A stretch of 64,000 nt of DNA from Escherichia coli (GCF_044324785.1 NZ_CP172127.1), one strand, 5' to 3'; positions 3,629 to 61,896 are shown, numbered from the stretch's first letter. Numbers and translations are program-made. Notes: a model not told the origin generated them from the sequence alone.

Positions 3629-3928
3629 ATGGCGCTTACAAAAGCTGAAATGTCAGAATATCTGTTTGATAAGCTTGGGCTTAGCAAGCGGGATGCCAAA
3701 GAACTGGTTGAACTGTTTTTCGAAGAGATCCGTCGCGCTCTGGAAAACGGCGAACAGGTGAAACTCTCTGGTTTTGGTAACTTCGATCTGCGTGATAAGA
3801 ATCAACGCCCGGGACGTAACCCGAAAACGGGCGAGGATATTCCCATTACAGCACGGCGCGTGGTGACCTTCAGACCCGGGCAGAAGTTAAAAAGCCGGGT
3901 CGAAAACGCTTCGCCCAAAGACGAGTAA
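3629..3928 (+). CDS. ihfA: integration host factor alpha subunit
   Basis: 99-aa [60 protein letters not shown]; HU/IHF fold signature. Confidence 0.95.
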
Positions 3929-3945
3929 TCTGATCTAACTAAAAA

Positions 3946-3966
3946 GGCCGCTCTGCGGCCTTTTTT
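3946..3966 (+). terminator. rho-independent terminator after ihfA (GGCCGC-tct-GCGGCC then TTTTTT)
   Basis: perfect 6-bp GC stem followed by a T6 run, seen in sequence. Confidence 0.75.
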
Positions 3967-4028
3967 CTTTTCACTGTCGAAGAGTCACCGTAAAATCAAC
4001 GCCATGACACTTCAGCAGAACGGATACC

Positions 4029-7160: not shown

Positions 7161-7874
7161 ATGAAGATTTTTTTGGAGAATCTTTATCATTCTGATTGCT
7201 ATTTCCTGCCGATAAGAGATAACCAGCAAGACCTTGTCGGCGTTGAGTTAATTACCCATTTCTCCAGTGAAGATGGTACGGTTCGTATCCCGACGAGTCG
7301 GGTTATAGCGCAACTTACCGAGGAGCAACATTGGCAATTATTTTCTGAGCAGTTGGAATTGCTAAAATCATGCCAACACTTTTTTATTCAACATAAACTC
7401 TTTGCCTGGCTTAATTTAACCCCACAAGTGGCTACTTTATTATTAGACAGGGATAATTACGCGGGCGAACTATTAAAATATCCGTTTATTGAACTGTTGA
7501 TTAATGAGAATTACCCGCATCTCGATGAAGGAAAAGATAATCGCGATCTTTTTTCCTTATCGCAAATGTATCCCCTTGTGTTAGGTAATTTGGGCGCAGG
7601 CAATAGCACAATGAAAGCGGTTTTTGATGGCCTTTTCACCCGCGTCATGCTGGATAAAAGTTTTATTCAGCAACAAATCACGCATCGCTCCTTCGAACCG
7701 TTTATTCGTGCGATCCAGGCGCAAATTTCCCCATGTTGCAATTGCATCATCGCGGGGGGCATTGATACGCCAGAAATAATGGCACAGATTATCCCCTTTG
7801 ATTTCCATGCTCTCCAGGGATGCCTGTGGCCTGCCGTTCCTGTAAATCAGATAACGACGTTGGTTCAGCGATAA
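7161..7874 (+). CDS. ydiV: degenerate EAL-domain protein, anti-FlhD4C2 factor
   Basis: 237-aa ORF matching YdiV; AT-rich codon usage; position between nlpC and selO. Confidence 0.88.
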   Translation: MKIFLENLYHSDCYFLPIRDNQQDLVGVELITHFSSEDGTVRIPTSRVIAQLTEEQHWQLFSEQLELLKSCQHFFIQHKLFAWLNLTPQVATLLLDRDNYAGELLKYPFIELLINENYPHLDEGKDNRDLFSLSQMYPLVLGNLGAGNSTMKAVFDGLFTRVMLDKSFIQQQITHRSFEPFIRAIQAQISPCCNCIIAGGIDTPEIMAQIIPFDFHALQGCLWPAVPVNQITTLVQR

Positions 7875-7897
7875 CCCTCCTGTTTGCTGGTGTTTAA

Positions 7898-9373
<1,476 letters not shown>

Positions 9374-9376
9374 AGG

Positions 9377-9568
9377 CTACTTGGTCAACAGCAGCTTGCC
9401 AGCCTGAGTTTTACGAAGCAGATATTCTTGCCCGTCATGATCGATAATCAGTTTGCCATCCGGACCTAACAGTGTCTGGCTGGTAATTCGCCGAATGGGC
9501 TGCGGGGAAGCGGTCTTGTGATTGGCATCCGTTTCAGGCGTGAGTTTTCTGCTATCCGTATAACGCAT
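9377..9568 (-). CDS. ydiE: HemP-like small protein
   Basis: ORF track 9377..9595; internal ATG gives the 63-aa [23 protein letters not shown] protein; convergent with selO with a 3-bp gap. Confidence 0.8.
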
Positions 9569-9592
9569 AAAAATTAATAATAATTGATATAA

Positions 9593-9612
9593 CAATAATT
9601 CTTATTATCAAT
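9593..9612 (-). promoter_or_regulatory. Fur-box-like AT palindrome upstream of ydiE (CAATAATTCTTATTATCAAT)
   Basis: near-perfect inverted repeat with GATAAT-type hexamers about 25 bp upstream of the ydiE ATG; ydiE/hemP homologues are typically iron-regulated. Confidence 0.5.
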
Positions 9613-9699
9613 ATTCTGGCGGGCCAGAGCAAGCAGTAATTTGTTGAGAAGACAACAAGTTGCGCAGAAATGCCCATTCCGTCAGGAATGGGCACGCAT

Positions 9700-10746
9700 T
9701 CAGAAGCGGGTATCAACCGCAGAGGCGAGTTTTTCGACCAGGCGTTCGGTATCTTCCCAGCCCAGACACGGGTCGGTAATCGATTGACCGTAAGTGAGCG
9801 GCTGACCGCCGACGATTTTTTGCGTTCCTTCGCGCAGGAAACTTTCCGCCATAATTCCAGCAATCGCCGTAGAGCCATTGCGGATTTGCTGACAAATATC
9901 CTCACAAACTTCTAACTGGCGACGGTGCTGCTTCTGGCAGTTACCGTGGCTGAAATCCACCACCAGATGTTCAGGCAAATCAAATTCGTGCAGCGTATCG
10001 CAGGCTGCGGCGATATCATCGGCATGATAATTCGGTTTTTTGCCGCCACGCATAATAATGTGGCCATACGGGTTGCCGCTGGTCTGATAGATGGTCATCT
10101 GACCATTTTTGTCTGGCGAGAGGAACATATGGCTGGCGCGGGCTGCGCGGATAGCATCCACAGCAATCCGCGTGTTGCCATCGGTACCATTTTTAAAACC
10201 TACCGGACAGGAGAGTGCCGAAGCCATTTCACGGTGGATCTGACTTTCGGTAGTACGTGCGCCAATCGCGCCCCAACTGATTAAATCAGCAATAAACTGA
10301 CCGGTCACCATATCGAGGAACTCAGTCGCGGTGGGGACGCCCAGCTCATTTACCTGTAAAAGTAATTTGCGCGCCAGCTCCAGACCGTGATTTACCCGAT
10401 AGCTGCCGTTTAAATCCGGATCGGAGATTAGCCCTTTCCAGCCGACAACAGTTCGTGGTTTTTCAAAATAGGTGCGCATTACGATTTCCAGCCGTGACTG
10501 GTACTGGTTGCGCAGCGACTGCAGACGGGTGGCGTACTCCATTGCAGCGGTGAGATCGTGGATCGAGCAGGGGCCAATAATGACCAACAGTCGCTTATCT
10601 TCACCATTCAGTATTTTTTCAATTCTGCGGCGGGAGTCGGTGACATGGGTGGCGACGCCAGGCGTTACGGGATACCGTAGCGCGAGTTCGGCGGGCGTTA
10701 CCAGGCTCTCAATACGCGCAGTACGGAGTTCGTCAGTTCTGTTCAT
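9700..10746 (-). CDS. aroH: DAHP synthase, Trp-sensitive
   Basis: 348-aa ORF; class I DAHP synthase sequence recognised. Confidence 0.95.
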   Translation of the reverse strand: MNRTDELRTARIESLVTPAELALRYPVTPGVATHVTDSRRRIEKILNGEDKRLLVIIGPCSIHDLTAAMEYATRLQSLRNQYQSRLEIVMRTYFEKPRTVVGWKGLISDPDLNGSYRVNHGLELARKLLLQVNELGVPTATEFLDMVTGQFIADLISWGAIGARTTESQIHREMASALSCPVGFKNGTDGNTRIAVDAIRAARASHMFLSPDKNGQMTIYQTSGNPYGHIIMRGGKKPNYHADDIAAACDTLHEFDLPEHLVVDFSHGNCQKQHRRQLEVCEDICQQIRNGSTAIAGIMAESFLREGTQKIVGGQPLTYGQSITDPCLGWEDTERLVEKLASAVDTRF

Positions 10747-28569: not shown

Positions 28570-28706
28570 CGTGTAATGGCTGCATGAAATAAACAATAAA
28601 ATATAAATAACATTATCAGCCTGCTGACGGCTTGAAGAGAGTCACAGTATCTTGTGCAACATTATTGGAAAGCGTGAGGGGCGAGGTAGCGAAGCGGAAA
28701 AATGTT

Positions 28707-28812
28707 AAAAAAAAGCCCATCGTGGGAGATGGGCAAAGACTACACACAGCAATTCGTTGTTTCACTCAGGGGATTTCCATGCTTATAAATCAATATGTTG
28801 ATTTATAACCGT
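28707..28812 (-). ncRNA. rprA: RprA small regulatory RNA (Hfq-dependent, activates rpoS translation)
   Basis: minus-strand sequence ACGGTTATAAATCAACATATTGATTTATAAGCATGGAAATCCCCTGAGTGAAACAACGAATTGCTGTGTGTAGTCTTTGCCCATCTCCCACGATGGGCTTTTTTT recognised as RprA, including the terminal hairpin plus U-run; lies between ydiL and ydiK. Confidence 0.85.
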
Positions 28813-34250: not shown

Positions 34251-34439
34251 TCCTGACTTAATGCCGCAAGTTCGCCATATCGACCTGGATTAATCTCCGT
34301 CCAGGTTCGATGGCCTTCTTAATACTGCTTATCTACCCGCCTGATATTGTTCAAAAATAATACTAATCGCAGTTTGTGTTAAAACGGCGGGTTAGCTTTA
34401 TGAGATTATTCTTATCGCCCCTTCAAGAGCTAAGCCACT

Positions 34440-34515
34440 GAGAGTGCCGGAGATAAGCGCCGGATGGGGTAGAAACCCTTAAGCCTGTGTCGCACAGACT
34501 TAAGGGTTTTCTTAT
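34440..34515 (+). ncRNA. rydB: candidate small RNA ending at an intrinsic terminator (possibly RydB, reported between ydiH and sufA)
   Basis: strong hairpin CCCTTAAG-loop-CTTAAGGG followed by TTTTC about 225 bp after ydiH and about 290 bp before sufA; 5' end not determinable from sequence; RydB identity is from memory of its map position, not sequence recall. Confidence 0.3.
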
Positions 34516-49625: not shown

Positions 49626-50438
49626 ATGATCATTACACGAGCAGACCTGCGAGAATGGCGTATCGGAGCGGTGATGTATCGCTGGTTCCTGCGCCATTTC
49701 CCACGCGGCGGTAGTTATGCCGATATTCATCATGCACTGATTGAGGAAGGATATACGGACTGGGCGGAGAGTCTGGTTGAGTATGCGTGGAAAAAATGGC
49801 TGGCGGATGAAAACTTCGCGCATCAGGAAGTTTCCTCTATGCAAAAACTGGCCACAGACCCCGGAGAGATACCATTTTGCAGTCAGTTTGCCCGCAGCGA
49901 CGATCATGCTCGCATCGGCTGTTGTGAGGATAACGCCCGAATCGCAACCGCTGGGTATGCCGCGCAAATTGCCAGTATGGGTTATAGCGTGCGGATTGGA
50001 AGTGTCGGCTTTAACAGTCACATTGGCAGCTCCGGTGAACGCGCACGGGTTGCTGTAACCGGTAATTCTTCGCGGATAAGCAGCGCTGGAAATAGTAGTC
50101 GGATTGCGAATACCGGAATGCGAGTACGCGTTTGTACATTGGGTGAACGGTGTCATGTCGCCAGTAATGGTGACCTGGTGCAAATCGCCAGCTTTGGCGC
50201 AAACGCCAGAATTGCCAACAGCGGCGACAATGTACACATCATTGCCAGCGGTGAAAATTCAACGGTAGTGAGCACGGGCGTGGTCGACTCAATTATTCTC
50301 GGGCCAGGGGGAAGCGCCGCACTGGCATATCATGACGGCGAAAGAGTTCGCTTCGCCGTCGCCATTGAAGGTGAAAACAATATTCGAGCCGGAGTCCGCT
50401 ATTGCCTTAATGAACAGCATCAGTTTGTTGAGTGCTGA
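49626..50438 (+). CDS. ydhT: repeat-containing protein of unknown function
   Basis: 270-aa ORF; last gene of the ydhY-T cluster; contains about 14 tandem 9-residue repeats. Confidence 0.85.
   Translation: MIITRADLREWRIGAVMYRWFLRHFPRGGSYADIHHALIEEGYTDWAESLVEYAWKKWLADENFAHQEVSSMQKLATDPGEIPFCSQFARSDDHARIGCCEDNARIATAGYAAQIASMGYSVRIGSVGFNSHIGSSGERARVAVTGNSSRISSAGNSSRIANTGMRVRVCTLGERCHVASNGDLVQIASFGANARIANSGDNVHIIASGENSTVVSTGVVDSIILGPGGSAALAYHDGERVRFAVAIEGENNIRAGVRYCLNEQHQFVEC
49908..50285 (+). repeat. tandem 27-bp (9-codon) coding repeats within ydhT, consensus x-[RH]-[IV]-x-x-x-G-x-x
   Basis: translation shows ARIGCCEDN/ARIATAGYA/AQIASMGYS/VRIGSVGFN/SHIGSSGER/ARVAVTGNS/SRISSAGNS/SRIANTGMR/VRVCTLGER/CHVASNGDL/VQIASFGAN/ARIANSGDN/VHIIASGEN/STVVSTGVV. 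Confidence 0.8.
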
Positions 50439-50443
50439 TAGCT

Positions 50444-52054
50444 TTACATTTGATTAAATGAAAGACGCCGACGAGCACGGGATGCAGGCTTTACGACCGC
50501 CTGAGCCATCGCCTCACCAATTTCTGCACATGCCGTAAGTCCCTGTACGAATGGCTGGTCGTGCATCAACCAGGGCAACGCGCCGAACGCTACGCGCCCA
50601 CGAATTTCTTCGGGTTGCTGTAGCGTATAATCTTCGCCAACATCAGGGATTTCATCCCCTGTTTTCTGTAATTGTTCGCGTAGTCCAGGGAAAGGAATAT
50701 CTTTCACTTTAAGCGGACGCTGCCCGCGGGCATCAATAAAAACGTCAAACGAGTAGCTATTGTCTTCCGTTTTCAGGACGGTGCGCGACTCATTAATTTC
50801 CATTTCGTAGTCTTCACCGAGGGCGAGAATATGAATGATTCCCGCTTCACGTAAGGCCAGTAGTCGACGAATAGACTCTGAAGGGATTGCCGCATAATTA
50901 TCGATGAAAACCCGGGCAAGGCCTTTACTGAACCGTTTATGGTCGTGTTCATTCAGATGAGGAACAATTTCCTGTACGGCTTCATGCAGGCGCAGAATGA
51001 CATAACGCCAGGGAACAGTATGTTTTTCTCGTTTATTGCGTTCGACTTCCTGGAGATTTTTTTCTGCCCAGTCGAATGGGTCGCGTTGTTTGCGCTCGGC
51101 AAACCAGGCTTGAGCAAAGGAATCGACATTCAGGCTTTCTAAGGCTATGCGTTGGCTCCAGTCTGGATCAGCAAATTTGATTTCCTCTACTATCAATCTA
51201 AATACCCGATCCAAAAGGCCCTCTTCGCCTTTTTGAATCTCAGCATTTAATGCTTGATCAGTGACGATGTGTAAGGGCTCGTAGGGAATAGGGCAATAGA
51301 AATCGGCTTCGGGTAAAATACCTGTGCGCGACATTAACGTAATATTTAGCTTTTCACTTGCGTTATCGCGGTGAAAAATGATGTGTTGTTTATCATCTTC
51401 AATGAACGAACCATGCTGAATAGCCACTGCCATTGCCGCATCCAGTCCGCTCAAGGATGTTCCCATAATACCCACATTACACGCATCGACCTTTGCTTCC
51501 ATCAGGCCTGACCACGGGCTGGGAAAGTACGTTCTGGTTGCTTCTTCTTCATCAGGCCAGACGTGACCCGTCGCGATCACTGCTAAATCAAACGTCTCGC
51601 TGGGTAAATCCTGATTTGTAGCGAGCATGACGCCAGCATTTGTAGTTTGCAGATCGGTAACCTGGCATGATTCATAAACAGCCACCGCAAATTTTTGCTG
51701 TCGTGCCTGGTCTACTAATCGTAAAAATTGATCGCGGAAATATTCGCCCAGCAGAATTCGCGGTAAAAACTGGCGATCGTGCAAGGTTTCTTTTTTAACG
51801 CCATAACGCTGGAGATGGCTGGCTTCTTGCTTTTGTAGCCATTCGAGATACGTACAATAAATCGGCGGTATTTCAATACTGGCAATATTTGCCAGCATCA
51901 GTTTTGAGTTTTCCTCATCACTGTATGGCATCCCGACACCGGCTTCATCAGCCTGCTCGAAGATAGAAATAGAAAGTGGAGTTTGTTGCTGTAGAAGCGA
52001 GAATAAGGTGTAGATCCCCGTAGGCCCGGCACCCACAATAGCAATTTTTTTCAT
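50444..52054 (-). CDS. ydhS: FAD/NAD(P)-binding protein of unknown function
   Basis: 536-aa ORF with N-terminal GxGxxG (IVGAGPTG); convergent with ydhT with a 5-bp gap. Confidence 0.85.
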   Translation of the reverse strand: MKKIAIVGAGPTGIYTLFSLLQQQTPLSISIFEQADEAGVGMPYSDEENSKLMLANIASIEIPPIYCTYLEWLQKQEASHLQRYGVKKETLHDRQFLPRILLGEYFRDQFLRLVDQARQQKFAVAVYESCQVTDLQTTNAGVMLATNQDLPSETFDLAVIATGHVWPDEEEATRTYFPSPWSGLMEAKVDACNVGIMGTSLSGLDAAMAVAIQHGSFIEDDKQHIIFHRDNASEKLNITLMSRTGILPEADFYCPIPYEPLHIVTDQALNAEIQKGEEGLLDRVFRLIVEEIKFADPDWSQRIALESLNVDSFAQAWFAERKQRDPFDWAEKNLQEVERNKREKHTVPWRYVILRLHEAVQEIVPHLNEHDHKRFSKGLARVFIDNYAAIPSESIRRLLALREAGIIHILALGEDYEMEINESRTVLKTEDNSYSFDVFIDARGQRPLKVKDIPFPGLREQLQKTGDEIPDVGEDYTLQQPEEIRGRVAFGALPWLMHDQPFVQGLTACAEIGEAMAQAVVKPASRARRRLSFNQM

Positions 52055-52179: not shown

Positions 52180-52485
52180 TCAGGCGAGTTTTGCCTGATT
52201 GATTTGACTCAGTGGCTCATTGACATCGAAAACTTTGGCGACAACTTCCTCAACGCCGAGATTTTTCAGTCGGGCAGTATGTTTTTCCAGATAGGCTAGG
52301 GCGCTTTTTTCATCAGTGAAAAGGTAGATCCCACCGGCTTCGTGGTTCTTTTCACTTTCTGTCCATACCTTCCACAGAAAACCAGGTTCCTGATTAATCG
52401 ACTCAGCAAGCGGTTTAAGCTGCTCAGCCATTGCGTCGCCAAATGGGCCATTAAAAGCAAAATGAAGTTGTAACAAAGTTGCCAT
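52180..52485 (-). CDS. ydhR: putative monooxygenase/dimeric alpha-beta barrel protein
   Basis: 101-aa ORF. Confidence 0.82.
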
Positions 52486-52592
52486 AGCGATTCTCCTTCT
52501 GATAACGCATACGAAGACAGTGTAAATCTTTTAACGTATTGGATACAGAGAAGAAACAGAGGGAAAAACGAGAAGACCAGATTAAGAAAATC

Positions 52593-52669
52593 TGGTGCGT
52601 CCGAGTGGACTCGAACCACCGACCCCCACCATGTCAAGGTGGTGCTCTAACCAACTGAGCTACGGACGC
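52593..52669 (-). tRNA. valW: tRNA-Val (anticodon GAC), distal copy of a tandem pair
   Basis: minus-strand GCGTCCGTAGCTCAGTTGGTTAGAGCACCACCTTGACATGGTGGGGGTCGGTGGTTCGAGTCCACTCGGACGCACCA: cloverleaf, GAC anticodon, encoded CCA; valV/valW naming is by position and could be swapped. Confidence 0.9.
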
Positions 52670-52673
52670 AGGA

Positions 52674-52750
52674 TGGTGCGTTCAATTGGACTCGAACCAA
52701 CGACCCCCACCATGTCAAGGTGGTGCTCTAACCAACTGAGCTATGAACGC
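52674..52750 (-). tRNA. valV: tRNA-Val (anticodon GAC), proximal copy of a tandem pair
   Basis: minus-strand GCGTTCATAGCTCAGTTGGTTAGAGCACCACCTTGACATGGTGGGGGTCGTTGGTTCGAGTCCAATTGAACGCACCA; differs from its neighbour by compensatory changes in the acceptor and T stems. Confidence 0.9.
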
Positions 52751-59388: not shown

Positions 59389-60321
59389 ATGTGGTCAGAA
59401 TATTCACTCGAAGTTGTTGATGCGGTAGCGCGTAATGGTAGTTTTAGCGCTGCGGCACAGGAGTTGCATCGCGTTCCTTCTGCGGTCAGCTATACCGTGC
59501 GTCAGCTGGAAGAGTGGCTGGCGGTGCCGCTGTTTGAACGACGTCACCGTGATGTGGAACTGACCGCTGCCGGGGCGTGGTTTCTCAAAGAAGGGCGCTC
59601 TGTTGTCAAAAAAATGCAGATCACCCGCCAGCAATGTCAGCAGATAGCGAACGGCTGGCGCGGTCAGTTAGCTATCGCAGTGGATAATATTGTCAGGCCA
59701 GAACGTACACGGCAGATGATCGTTGATTTTTATCGCCATTTTGATGATGTCGAACTTCTTGTCTTTCAGGAAGTGTTCAACGGTGTCTGGGATGCGCTTT
59801 CCGACGGGCGCGTGGAACTGGCGATTGGCGCAACACGCGCGATTCCGGTAGGCGGTCGTTATGCCTTCCGCGATATGGGGATGCTAAGCTGGAGTTGCGT
59901 TGTTGCCAGTCACCACCCGCTGGCGTTGATGGATGGCCCGTTCAGCGATGATACGTTGCGCAACTGGCCGTCGTTGGTGCGCGAAGACACCTCGCGAACG
60001 CTACCTAAACGTATTACCTGGTTGCTGGATAACCAAAAAAGACTTGTCGTGCCTGACTGGGAATCATCGGCAACCTGTATCTCGGCAGGATTATGCATAG
60101 GGATGGTGCCAACACATTTCGCCAAACCGTGGCTTAATGAGGGTAAGTGGGTAGCACTAGAACTGGAAAACCCCTTCCCGGATTCGGCATGTTGTCTGAC
60201 ATGGCAGCAAAATGATATGTCGCCTGCGTTAACCTGGTTGCTTGAGTATCTCGGCGATAGTGAGACGCTGAATAAGGAGTGGCTGCGGGAGCCGGAAGAG
60301 ACTCCCGCAACGGGTGATTAA
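59389..60321 (+). CDS. punR: LysR-family transcriptional regulator (PunR/YdhB)
   Basis: 310-aa ORF with N-terminal LysR HTH; divergent from punC. Confidence 0.88.
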
Positions 60322-61343
60322 CGACGATAGTCGCGGAACGGGCCGTCAGCCACGGAGCGGCGTTCAATCAACCGCGGATGCACTTCAATGGATTGCGGTT
60401 CTTCGCGTTTATTGACGATACGATCCAACAGCATGTTGAACGCCGTTTCGCCCAGCGAATCTTTTGGCTGATGGATCGTGGTCAGCGCCGGCGTAAAATA
60501 GCGGGCGTTGCGCACGTTATCATAACCGATCAGCGAAACATCCTGCGGGACGCGCAGACCCATTTCATCAGCAGCACAAAGTGCGCCCATTGCCATGATA
60601 TCGCCACCACAGAAGACGGCAGTAGGGCGATGCGGCTGCGACAGGATTTGCTGCATGGCGCGATAACCAGATTCGGGTTCAAAGTCACCCTGCACAATCC
60701 AGCTTTCCGGCACCTTGATCATCGCTTCTTCCATCGCCTTCATAAAACCGGCAAGGCGGCCTGCGCCGGTGTTACGTTCCAGCGGGCCGGGGATAACGCC
60801 GATTTCGCGGTGACCGCGTTCTATCAGATAACGCCCGGCCATGTAACCGCCTTCGAACGCGTTATCAATGACCGCATCGGTGAAGTCAGCTTTTGCTTCA
60901 CCCCAGTCCATCACCACCATTGGGATATGGCGATACTCTTCCAGCATCGCCAGCAACGGCTCTGGGTACTCAGAACACATCACCAGCAGACCATCGACGC
61001 GTTTTTGCGCCATCATCGACAGATAAGCCCGCTGTTTCTCAAGATTGTTCCACGCATTGCCCAGAATCAGGGTGTAACCTTTCTGGAAGCAATTTTTTTC
61101 AACCGCTTCAATGATCTCGGCAAAATAGGCCGCTTCGCTGCTGGTCGCCAGCAAACCGATAGACTTGGTGTGGTTAACCTTCAGACTACGCGCCACCGCG
61201 CTAGGGGAGTAGTGTAATTCTTTGATCGCTGCCCACACGGCGTTGCGCGTTTCTTCAGCGACGAAACGTGTTTTGTTGATCACGTGTGACACAGTTGTAG
61301 TGGAAACGTTTGCTCGTTTCGCTACATCTTTTATTGTTGCCAT
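60318..61343 (-). CDS. purR: purine repressor (LacI family)
   Basis: 341-aa [58 protein letters not shown]. Confidence 0.97.
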
Positions 61344-61387
61344 TCCATTTCACTCCAGACCCTAACTTCAGCTCCTGCAAAATCGCA

Positions 61388-61403
61388 AGGTAAACGTTTG
61401 CCT
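61388..61403 (-). promoter_or_regulatory. PUR-box-like operator in the purR leader (AGGCAAACGTTTACCT on the minus strand)
   Basis: AAACGTTT-centred palindrome about 45-60 nt upstream of the purR ATG; purR is autoregulated through operators in its leader. Confidence 0.55.
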
Positions 61404-61641
61404 TTACACACCTTACGCACAACAAAAGTGTTGCGGTACGCCGGAAAAACGACACGGAGCGTCAGGAAGGGGTCAATGGCCAGTACGCAAATAGTGTAAG
61501 CGTGGAATTTTGGCCGATCTTGACGAAAAGGGGAAGTGGTAAAAACACTTATCATTATAAATGACGGGAGATTTTTTCATCACAGTGTGTAAAAATGCGT
61601 AATATCACTTTTTGTGTGGTAATAAAAAAGGAGAAAACTTG

Positions 61642-61731
61642 ATGAGCACCGACCTTAAATTTTCACTGGTAACAACGATTATCGTCCTCGGTTTGATCGT
61701 GGCCGTGGGTTTGACAGCCGCGCTGCACTGA
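61642..61731 (+). CDS. ynhF: 29-aa single-TM small membrane protein
   Basis: ATG AGC ACC GAC ... CTG CAC TGA gives MSTDLKFSLVTTIIVLGLIVAVGLTAALH; GGAG Shine-Dalgarno 8 nt upstream; not in the ORF track because it is under 60 aa. Confidence 0.7.
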   Translation: MSTDLKFSLVTTIIVLGLIVAVGLTAALH

Positions 61732-61896
61732 TTTCCTCTCGAGGGAGCGCGTTCTCCCTCGCATCTCCTTCCTGTTTGTTAGCAAAATGGCAAAAGTGTT
61801 TTCTCTTTTTGTTATTTTCATTTTTTTGTGATTGCTGTCATGCTTTCGCCACTTTAATGAATATCGCGTAATGACGCGAAGAGGTGGAGATAAGGC

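Follow-up and report, generated by a model that had tools for sequence, protein, structure and literature searches.

Three convergent gene pairs with abutting or overlapping ends

The window (i.e., the whole stretch of 64,000 nucleotides of Escherichia coli DNA that was analysed) is colinear with the reverse strand of E. coli K-12 MG1655 from position 1,734,821 to 1,798,830, at 98.2% identity over all 64 kb, and a 1-kb probe taken from it found matches in 5422 of 5426 complete E. coli genomes. It contains three pairs of adjacent genes in convergent orientation with nearly or fully touching 3′ ends, i.e., selO/ydiE, ydhT/ydhS and punR/purR. In the first pair, the coding sequence (CDS) of selO (ydiU; 7937–9373, plus strand; name from RefSeq, boundaries from the ORF list) ends with a TAA stop codon at 9371–9373, while ydiE (hemP; 63 aa; 9377–9568, minus strand; read from the sequence and its translation) ends with a TAG read from 9379 to 9377 (CTA on the plus strand). 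This leaves a stop-to-stop gap of 3 bp (AGG) that is identical in K-12, where b1705 (ydiE) has the same length as in the window. In the second pair, ydhT (49626–50438, plus strand), the last gene of ydhYVWXUT, ends with a TGA at 50436–50438 and faces ydhS (50444–52054, minus strand), with a TAA read from 50446 to 50444 (TTA on the plus strand), the gap being 5 bp in the window vs. 11 bp in K-12. In the third pair, punR (ydhB; 310 aa; 59389–60321, plus strand; TAA at 60319–60321) and purR (60318–61343, minus strand; TAA read from 60320 to 60318) have both of their stops within a single TTAA at 60318–60321 and thus overlap by 4 bp, as in K-12. The RefSeq annotation of K-12 contains the same six genes with gaps of 3, 11 and –4 bp for selO/ydiE, ydhT/ydhS and punR/purR, respectively. 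The three tight tail-to-tail junctions pointed out in an earlier note on this sequence (i.e., gaps of 3 and 5 bp and a shared TTAA) are therefore exact.

Four tetramers, i.e., CTAA, TTAA, CTAG and TTAG, can end two genes on opposite strands (PMC2174442, PMC4161906). The punR/purR junction is such a 4-nt stop/stop overlap, with the TTAA also being present in K-12, Citrobacter and Serratia, while selO/ydiE and ydhT/ydhS abut without overlapping, at 3 and 5 bp.

It is extremely improbable that one gene of a pair was mis-called (because of a wrong stop or because it is not a real gene) and that the tight spacing is an illusion. ydiE is indeed short, and automatic calls at punR/purR elsewhere give long overlaps of 74 bp (L087, Klebsiella, Logan assembly) and 138 bp (L089, Yersinia pseudotuberculosis), which may be C-terminal extensions after stop loss, or mis-calls. 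Likewise, selO of Acerihabitans (L012) is overlapped by an 800-aa ORF, which is without a Pfam match and was set aside as probably spurious. Nevertheless, the stops in the window were read directly from intact ORFs, the six genes are all curated in K-12 with the same ends (for ydhS, see below), the homologues of YdiE, PunR and YdhT have matching C-termini, and ydiE is a measured Fur target.

Tight convergent spacing is common in E. coli

As a baseline, the convergent CDS–CDS pairs in six 50-kb annotated stretches of K-12 (300 kb) outside the window were read by hand. In this sample of 46 pairs, the gap was ≤5 bp in 14 (30%) and ≤11 bp in 16 (35%), eight pairs overlapped (six of them by exactly 4 bp), no pair had a gap of 12–33 bp, and 30 pairs were spaced by 34–380 bp. 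The window itself holds nine convergent pairs with K-12 gaps of 161, –4, 39, 40, 11, 63, 42, 56 and 3 bp, and the probability of finding at least three tight pairs among nine under the baseline rate is 0.55. The tight spacing of the three pairs is not above the genome norm, and a convergent gap of 0–5 bp in E. coli signals nothing unusual, since about a third of the convergent pairs look so. Published counts of convergent overlaps in E. coli are 58 (PMC2174442) or 75 (PMC4161906).

As a side observation, the convergent gaps in the K-12 samples and the window look bimodal, with 16 of the 46 baseline pairs at ≤9 bp, none at 12–33 bp and the remainder at ≥34 bp, where they cluster at 34–47 bp. 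Such a distribution is compatible with junctions that either share a hairpin terminator in the intergenic space or have collapsed to abutting genes. Abutting convergent ends were also seen at other Fur-regulated loci, i.e., a 4-bp overlap at fepE/fepC (K-12 619384–619387) and a 3-bp gap at entS/fepB (K-12 623550–623554), so that tight ends beside iron-regulated genes are not special to ydiE.

The purR transcript ends at a hairpin within punR

Consensus terminator scans around the three junctions yielded nothing at the stops, with totals near the shuffle expectation, and were replaced by our own hairpin-plus-U scan in which each site was ranked against all positions of the window. With neither approach was a convincing intrinsic terminator found for selO, ydiE, punR or ydhS. 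For purR, however, the RNA downstream of the stop contains a hairpin (GCGGGAGUC-UCUUCC-GGCUCCCGC; 60285–60308, minus strand) with a 10-bp stem of ca. –19.5 kcal/mol that lies wholly inside punR. In its 121-nt context this hairpin has a z-score of –3.2 (0 of 200 shuffles folded as well), and its site belongs to the top 0.05% of all window positions in the hairpin-plus-U scan.

Published Term-seq data place the 3′ end of the purR mRNA directly after this hairpin, at K-12 1738907 in LB and 1738908 in a second condition, where it is classified as "primary, antisense" (PMC7815308). Mapped through the K-12 alignment, this end corresponds to window position 60279–60280 (minus strand), i.e., within punR, 38–39 nt past the purR stop and 5–6 nt after the hairpin. 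For this mapping, the 61-nt sequence column of the Term-seq table was taken to span –50 to +10 around the end, a convention that was checked on the pspE terminator. After the purR stem the RNA continues with AGCCACUCCUUAUUC, AGCCA/C being the site of the 3′ end; because this precedes the U-containing tract UCCUUAUUC, the mapped end could be exonuclease-trimmed rather than the point of termination. The RNA downstream of purR has a C/G ratio of 1.36–1.61 (93rd–94th percentile of the window), and no bicyclomycin sensitivity was reported at purR (PMC7815308).

For punR, the downstream RNA is not C-rich (C/G of 0.9). A strong hairpin at 60477–60516, ca. 170–200 nt past the punR stop, ranks high in the scan but was rejected as being at chance level over the ca. 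3000 positions searched.

The punR–purR junction was further compared across eight other genomes. A perfect hairpin of 8–12 bp follows the purR stop in Citrobacter, Kosakonia, Serratia, Klebsiella, Cronobacter, Enterobacter and Yersinia, so that together with Escherichia eight genera carry such hairpins, of –14 to –24 kcal/mol and with differing sequences. The sole exception among the junctions compared was a locus labelled Salmonella Choleraesuis (L085), from which the hairpin is absent. Some pairs have changed on both sides (e.g., an A-U pair in E. coli corresponds to C-G in Klebsiella), although formal covariation is weak, with double changes in 5 of 10 pairs in a MAFFT alignment that shifts the 5′ arm; conservation was therefore judged from the per-sequence folds.

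The last 12 codons of punR consist of the purR terminator hairpin plus the 9-nt spacer before the purR stop, and the punR/purR gap varies across genera (–4, –4, –4, +6, +18, +18 and +19 bp). The loop of the purR hairpin contains the punR stop in Kosakonia, Cronobacter and Enterobacter (…E-W-L-R-E-P-E/Q-stop), at a gap of 18–19 bp, whereas its codons are sense codons in E. coli and Citrobacter, where punR goes seven codons further, through the other arm of the hairpin, to the TAA that shares the TTAA with purR. The position of one stop codon, in the hairpin loop or not, thus sets whether punR and purR are separated by 18 bp or overlap over 4 bp. That one sequence serves both as the purR terminator hairpin and as the coding sequence of the PunR tail, and that this difference between a stop in the loop and read-through sets the spacing, is the mildly new element of this analysis.

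PurR is a repressor of purine synthesis, and PunR is an activator of punC, which encodes a purine nucleoside exporter. The punC-punR-purR order and the tight junction are conserved from Escherichia to Serratia and Yersinia, and the hairpin is present in eight genera despite divergent PunR tails. Both observations would support the hairpin and the PunR C-terminus being a conserved dual-coding element, in which selection on the hairpin RNA shapes the last ca. 10 residues of PunR and the overlap confers reciprocal control of purR and punR. If true, expression of purR and punR would be kept from peaking together, but this evidence contains no sign of a regulatory effect of the overlap, and we regard the proposal as very doubtful.

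A Rho-dependent region within selO downstream of ydiE

The antisense RNA that would arise from reading past the ydiE stop (9077–9376, minus strand) has a C/G ratio of 1.52 over 300 nt, placing it in the 99th percentile of the window. Being C-rich and G-poor, it is an expected substrate of Rho. In agreement, a bicyclomycin-sensitive Rho termination region antisense to ydiU is listed at K-12 1790016 on the plus strand (score 3.2, p-value of 7.6e-5), with 73 reads upstream and 20 downstream without bicyclomycin vs. 83 and 73 with bicyclomycin (PMC7815308). This position corresponds to ca. 9165 in the window, inside selO and ca. 210 nt past the ydiE stop. The region is only just significant, and the Rho-sensitive antisense reads in selO need not come from ydiE but could stem from aroH read-through or an internal antisense promoter. 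Near ydiE itself, the Term-seq tables contain no 3′ end within K-12 1,789,700–1,789,999 (PMC7815308).

Downstream of selO, the RNA is not C-rich (C/G of 0.84–0.87 over 200–300 nt). Two candidate structures were rejected at this junction. A strong hairpin at 9540–9546, ca. 170–200 nt past the selO stop, ranks high but within chance over the ca. 3000 positions searched. Moreover, an inverted repeat spanning both stops (GGCTGG..AGCTGCT / AGCAGCT..CCAGCC), considered as a bidirectional terminator, has z-scores of only –1.0 and –1.4 and is not preserved at the selO/ydiE junctions of Superficieibacter and Enterobacter sp. Bisph1.

Upstream, the ydiE promoter region contains an AT-rich segment resembling a Fur box (TGATAATAAGAATTATTGTTATATCAATTATTATTAA; 9572–9611, minus strand; a match judged by eye and unscored), and a Fur ChIP-exo peak has been assigned to ydiE, which is part of the core Fur regulon (PMC10164565). 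This promoter region is separated from aroH by the aroH intrinsic terminator (GCCCATTCC-TGAC-GGAATGGGC, followed by ATTTCTG; 9664–9693, minus strand), as read from the sequence. In E. albertii (L003), ydiE is absent between selO and aroH, so that ydiE and its Fur-regulated promoter constitute an insertion or deletion relative to E. coli. In this species, 13 bp separate the selO stop from the downstream aroH terminator hairpin and 41 bp separate it from the aroH stop (L003 3935–3985, corresponding to window 9371–9700).

Outside E. coli, the selO/ydiE arrangement was found among the relatives compared only in Superficieibacter and Enterobacter sp. Bisph1, with gaps of 6–7 bp. In Citrobacter and two Enterobacter species, selO is instead followed by a convergent gene for an ABC-transporter ATPase at –4 or 0 bp, and in Pectobacterium by one at +19 bp, while Yersinia and Rahnella have spacers of 43–54 bp past selO, two of which contain visible hairpins.

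A candidate terminator at ydhT and a shifted ydhS stop codon

The ydh operon, which is reportedly expressed under anaerobiosis, has a candidate intrinsic terminator at the end of ydhT (50398–50455, plus strand), consisting of a hairpin and a U-tract found in our own scan. The hairpin of 45 nt (50398–50442; –16.0 kcal/mol) comprises the stop of ydhT with the 13 codons before it and 4 nt after it, and is followed by TTTACATTTGATT / UUUACAUUUGAUU, overlying the stop and last codons of ydhS; directly after the stem, UUUACAUUU has 6 U in 9 nt. Only 0.04% of the window positions score as well in the hairpin-plus-U scan, a rank that is only suggestive given the number of positions searched. Three to five of 1000 shuffles fold as well, the stem is rich in A-U and G-U pairs, and the K-12 version folds at –15.4 kcal/mol. 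The hairpin is kept in another Escherichia locus (L099) and absent from Citrobacter-like loci. These sequence features point to a putative terminator of the ydh operon at the ydhT end; the Term-seq tables for aerobic LB and M63 contain no 3′ end within K-12 1,748,600–1,748,899 (PMC7815308).

The difference between the window and K-12 at this junction lies in ydhS, which is two codons longer in the window because the K-12 stop TAA is a CAA here, shifting the gap from 11 to 5 bp. This 5-bp allele is rare: of 5379 complete E. coli genomes, a single one matches the 80-nt junction at 100% identity, and the two E. coli genomes that were spot-checked had the 11-bp gap. The sole identical genome is that of strain N3, where ydhS is annotated as a pseudogene. 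The 80-nt junction is also far more variable than its flanks, most E. coli being 90–95% identical over it vs. ca. 98% overall. In Citrobacter-like genomes, a convergent ABC permease gene follows ydhT at –32 or +5 bp.

Separately, a very strong Rho region (score 87) is listed immediately upstream of the ydhS start, at K-12 1747130 (plus strand in K-12; window ca. 52055), where it follows the valV-valW-ydhR transcript (PMC7815308). In LB, ydhS should therefore receive little transcription from upstream.

Small RNA matches elsewhere in the window

Several matches to RNA families lie outside the three junctions. The Rfam sRNA family STnc550 has a match of 396 bits at 61344–61734 (plus strand), directly upstream of purR but on the other strand. 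Since this stretch contains the 29-aa cydH (ynhF) gene, the Term-seq 3′ end of which (K-12 1737422) is very abundant, the "sRNA" looks like the mRNA of a small protein. STnc540 matches 3870–4028 (plus strand), overlapping the 3′ end of ihfA and the downstream spacer, and the "antisense RNA" HPnc0260 matches 52469–52631 (plus strand), opposite two tRNA-Val genes (52596–52750, minus strand), a match that probably reflects the complementarity to the tRNAs. RprA (28705–28812, minus strand) and rydB (34417–34477, plus strand) are both present as well.

Transcript overlap and expression of the partner genes

The excludon concept is said to go back to Sesto et al. in 2013. In the MG1655 excludome obtained from RNA-seq coverage with ExcludonFinder (NAR 2025, PMC12288877), purR-punR, ydhS-ydhT and ydiE-selO are all called among 165 convergent excludons, and 276 of 370 convergent operons were found by Conway et al. 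(2014, PMC4161252) to overlap, by 286 nt on average. The overlaps could be functional, i.e., selected so that expression of one gene lowers that of its partner via transcriptional interference or cleavage of the duplex by RNase III, with iron limitation (ydiE on) lowering SelO or with reciprocal PurR/PunR expression as examples. The excludon calls for all three pairs would agree with this, as would the strong Fur regulation of ydiE and the conserved arrangement of punR and purR, both in purine metabolism. List membership tracks geometry, however, since 14 of the 16 baseline pairs with gaps of ≤11 bp are listed vs. 2 of the 30 wider ones (Fisher p = 5e-8), and being listed therefore says little about function or regulation. 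Moreover, partners appear interchangeable (cf. the ABC ATPase facing selO in Citrobacter and Enterobacter, the lack of ydiE in E. albertii, and the ABC permease facing ydhT), the purR overlap amounts to only about 40 nt, and the exact spacing varies within E. coli.

For ydiE/selO, a test is available in strand-specific RNA-seq of fur deletion vs. wild-type strains (PMC10164565). In MG1655, ydiE rose from ca. 11 to ca. 86 (log2 of +2.87) and in W3110 from 0 to ca. 32 (log2 of +8.1), while ydiU (selO) went from ca. 83 to ca. 108 (log2 of +0.32) and from ca. 55 to ca. 146 (log2 of +1.6), respectively. The earlier note had speculated that ydiE couples iron status to SelO expression. Interference would predict a fall of selO when ydiE is induced, yet with ydiE raised at least 7-fold (i.e., from 7-fold to more than 100-fold) the selO mRNA rose, which leaves this coupling unsupported. 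ydiE/selO, the only pair tested in this way, thus does not display mutually exclusive expression, and on the whole we consider a selected regulatory role of the overlaps unlikely.

As an observation in its own right, ydiU (selO) was up in the fur deletion while the upstream ydiV (rflP) was down (window 7161–9373), and a Fur ChIP-exo peak has been assigned to the ydiV/ydiU unit (PMC10164565). This suggests that selO has an expression input independent of ydiV.

Termination within the opposing coding sequences

The earlier note had reasoned that such junctions leave no room for terminators and that transcripts must hence enter the partner gene. The premise is false, since the signals sit inside the opposing CDS (i.e., the purR hairpin and 3′ end in punR, and the Rho region in selO), and terminators inside the partner CDS of E. 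coli convergent overlaps had already been noted in 2007 (PMC2174442). The outcome that the note inferred, transcription into the partner gene, is correct and has been documented before, by the same two signals and by the excludome (PMC12288877). The finding that the note had named as contradicting it, i.e., efficient termination before entry into the convergent gene, was not observed: termination takes place after entry.

We infer the location of four to five of the six transcript ends. The published Term-seq tables that were searched contain no 3′ ends for selO, ydiE, punR, ydhT or ydhS, the bicyclomycin data list no Rho region for the purR, punR, ydhS or ydhT transcripts (PMC7815308), and the SMRT-Cappable-seq supplements mention none of the six genes. 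The selO, punR and ydhS transcripts may possibly end by Rho, by exonucleases or by polymerase collisions.

Collision could even be the general mechanism, with head-on polymerases, positioned by stem-loops in the nascent RNA, terminating both genes of each pair. Such a model has been put forward for hundreds of convergent E. coli pairs with terminators that are neither intrinsic-like nor Rho-dependent (Ju et al. 2019; Wang et al. 2022). In line with it, the near-perfect palindromic sequence of the purR hairpin would allow it to fold in the punR transcript as well as in that of purR, and a stop-spanning hairpin of –24.5 kcal/mol can be drawn at selO/ydiE. The latter is not significant (z of about –1 to –1.4), however, and is not preserved in the other two genera with this pair, while at purR/punR a 3′ end is recorded on one strand (purR) only. 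Moreover, expression of the six genes is low or condition-specific, with ydiE being Fur-repressed and ydhS lying behind the score-87 Rho region, so that simultaneous convergent transcription is probably infrequent. As an account of all three pairs, we therefore hold collision-driven termination to be rather unlikely.

The explanation that we consider likely is that the three pairs are ordinary abutting convergent ends, at which transcription would be ended by signals inside the opposing CDS rather than in an intergenic spacer, and the spacing of which would result from stop-codon drift. For purR, the published data show an mRNA that ends inside punR, just after a GC-rich hairpin, and for ydiE the bicyclomycin data indicate that antisense transcription into the 3′ end of selO is limited by Rho at ca. 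210 nt past the ydiE stop, in C-rich RNA. The ydh operon would end at the hairpin and U-tract formed by the last codons of ydhT and ydhS. Past their own stops, the selO, punR and ydhS transcripts would yield untranslated antisense RNA, which is a normal substrate for Rho and 3′ exonucleases.

In this explanation, the tight spacing would be a by-product of stop codons drifting into or out of the space beside the neighbour, and not a designed regulatory device. Such drift is directly seen for punR (across genera) and for ydhS (within E. coli), and the gene neighbourhoods compared above suggest that the tightness at the selO and ydhT ends is independent of the partner gene. The resulting short sense–antisense overlaps are real, but a regulatory consequence of them would be hypothetical. 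The three junctions are thus real, ordinary and already catalogued, with the regulatory speculation being unsupported, and they illustrate that terminators and Rho-loading regions routinely lie inside the CDS of a neighbour.

Comparison with known systems

The three adjacent pairs resemble convergent excludons in that their transcripts overlap according to the MG1655 excludome table. They differ with regard to the defining claim of the excludon, mutually exclusive expression, which would be hypothetical for the three pairs and is contradicted for ydiE/selO by the fur-deletion RNA-seq.

Peters et al. reportedly described in 2012 the Rho-dependent suppression of antisense and read-through transcription. 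More recently, Adams et al. (2021, PMC7815308) classified 99 Term-seq ends as "primary and antisense" and found 51.5% of 1078 Rho regions to be antisense. Read-through from ydiE would be alike, being untranslated and C-rich and meeting a bicyclomycin-sensitive region in selO, with the difference that direct evidence concerns only one of the six transcript ends here.

The purR 3′ end, directly after a stable stem-loop, is likewise comparable to the hairpin-defined 3′ ends lacking a canonical U-tract (Dar & Sorek 2018, PMC6061677). Its stem-loop also resembles overlapping bidirectional terminators (Ju et al. 2019; Wang et al. 2022, preprint) in being palindromic at a convergent boundary, but it differs from these in that it is located in a CDS instead of between genes and in that a 3′ end has been reported on the purR strand only.

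Finally, punR/purR is alike to the convergent overlaps described by Lillo & Krakauer (2007, PMC2174442) and Huvet & Stumpf (2014, PMC4161906) in sharing a TTAA, unlike selO/ydiE and ydhT/ydhS, which abut at 3 and 5 bp and are not 4-nt stop/stop overlaps. Lillo & Krakauer reported a terminator in the partner CDS for 23 of 116 such E. coli genes, as is likewise seen for purR, and the origin of convergent overlaps by loss or shift of a stop codon (PMC2174442) is the same as the one visible here.
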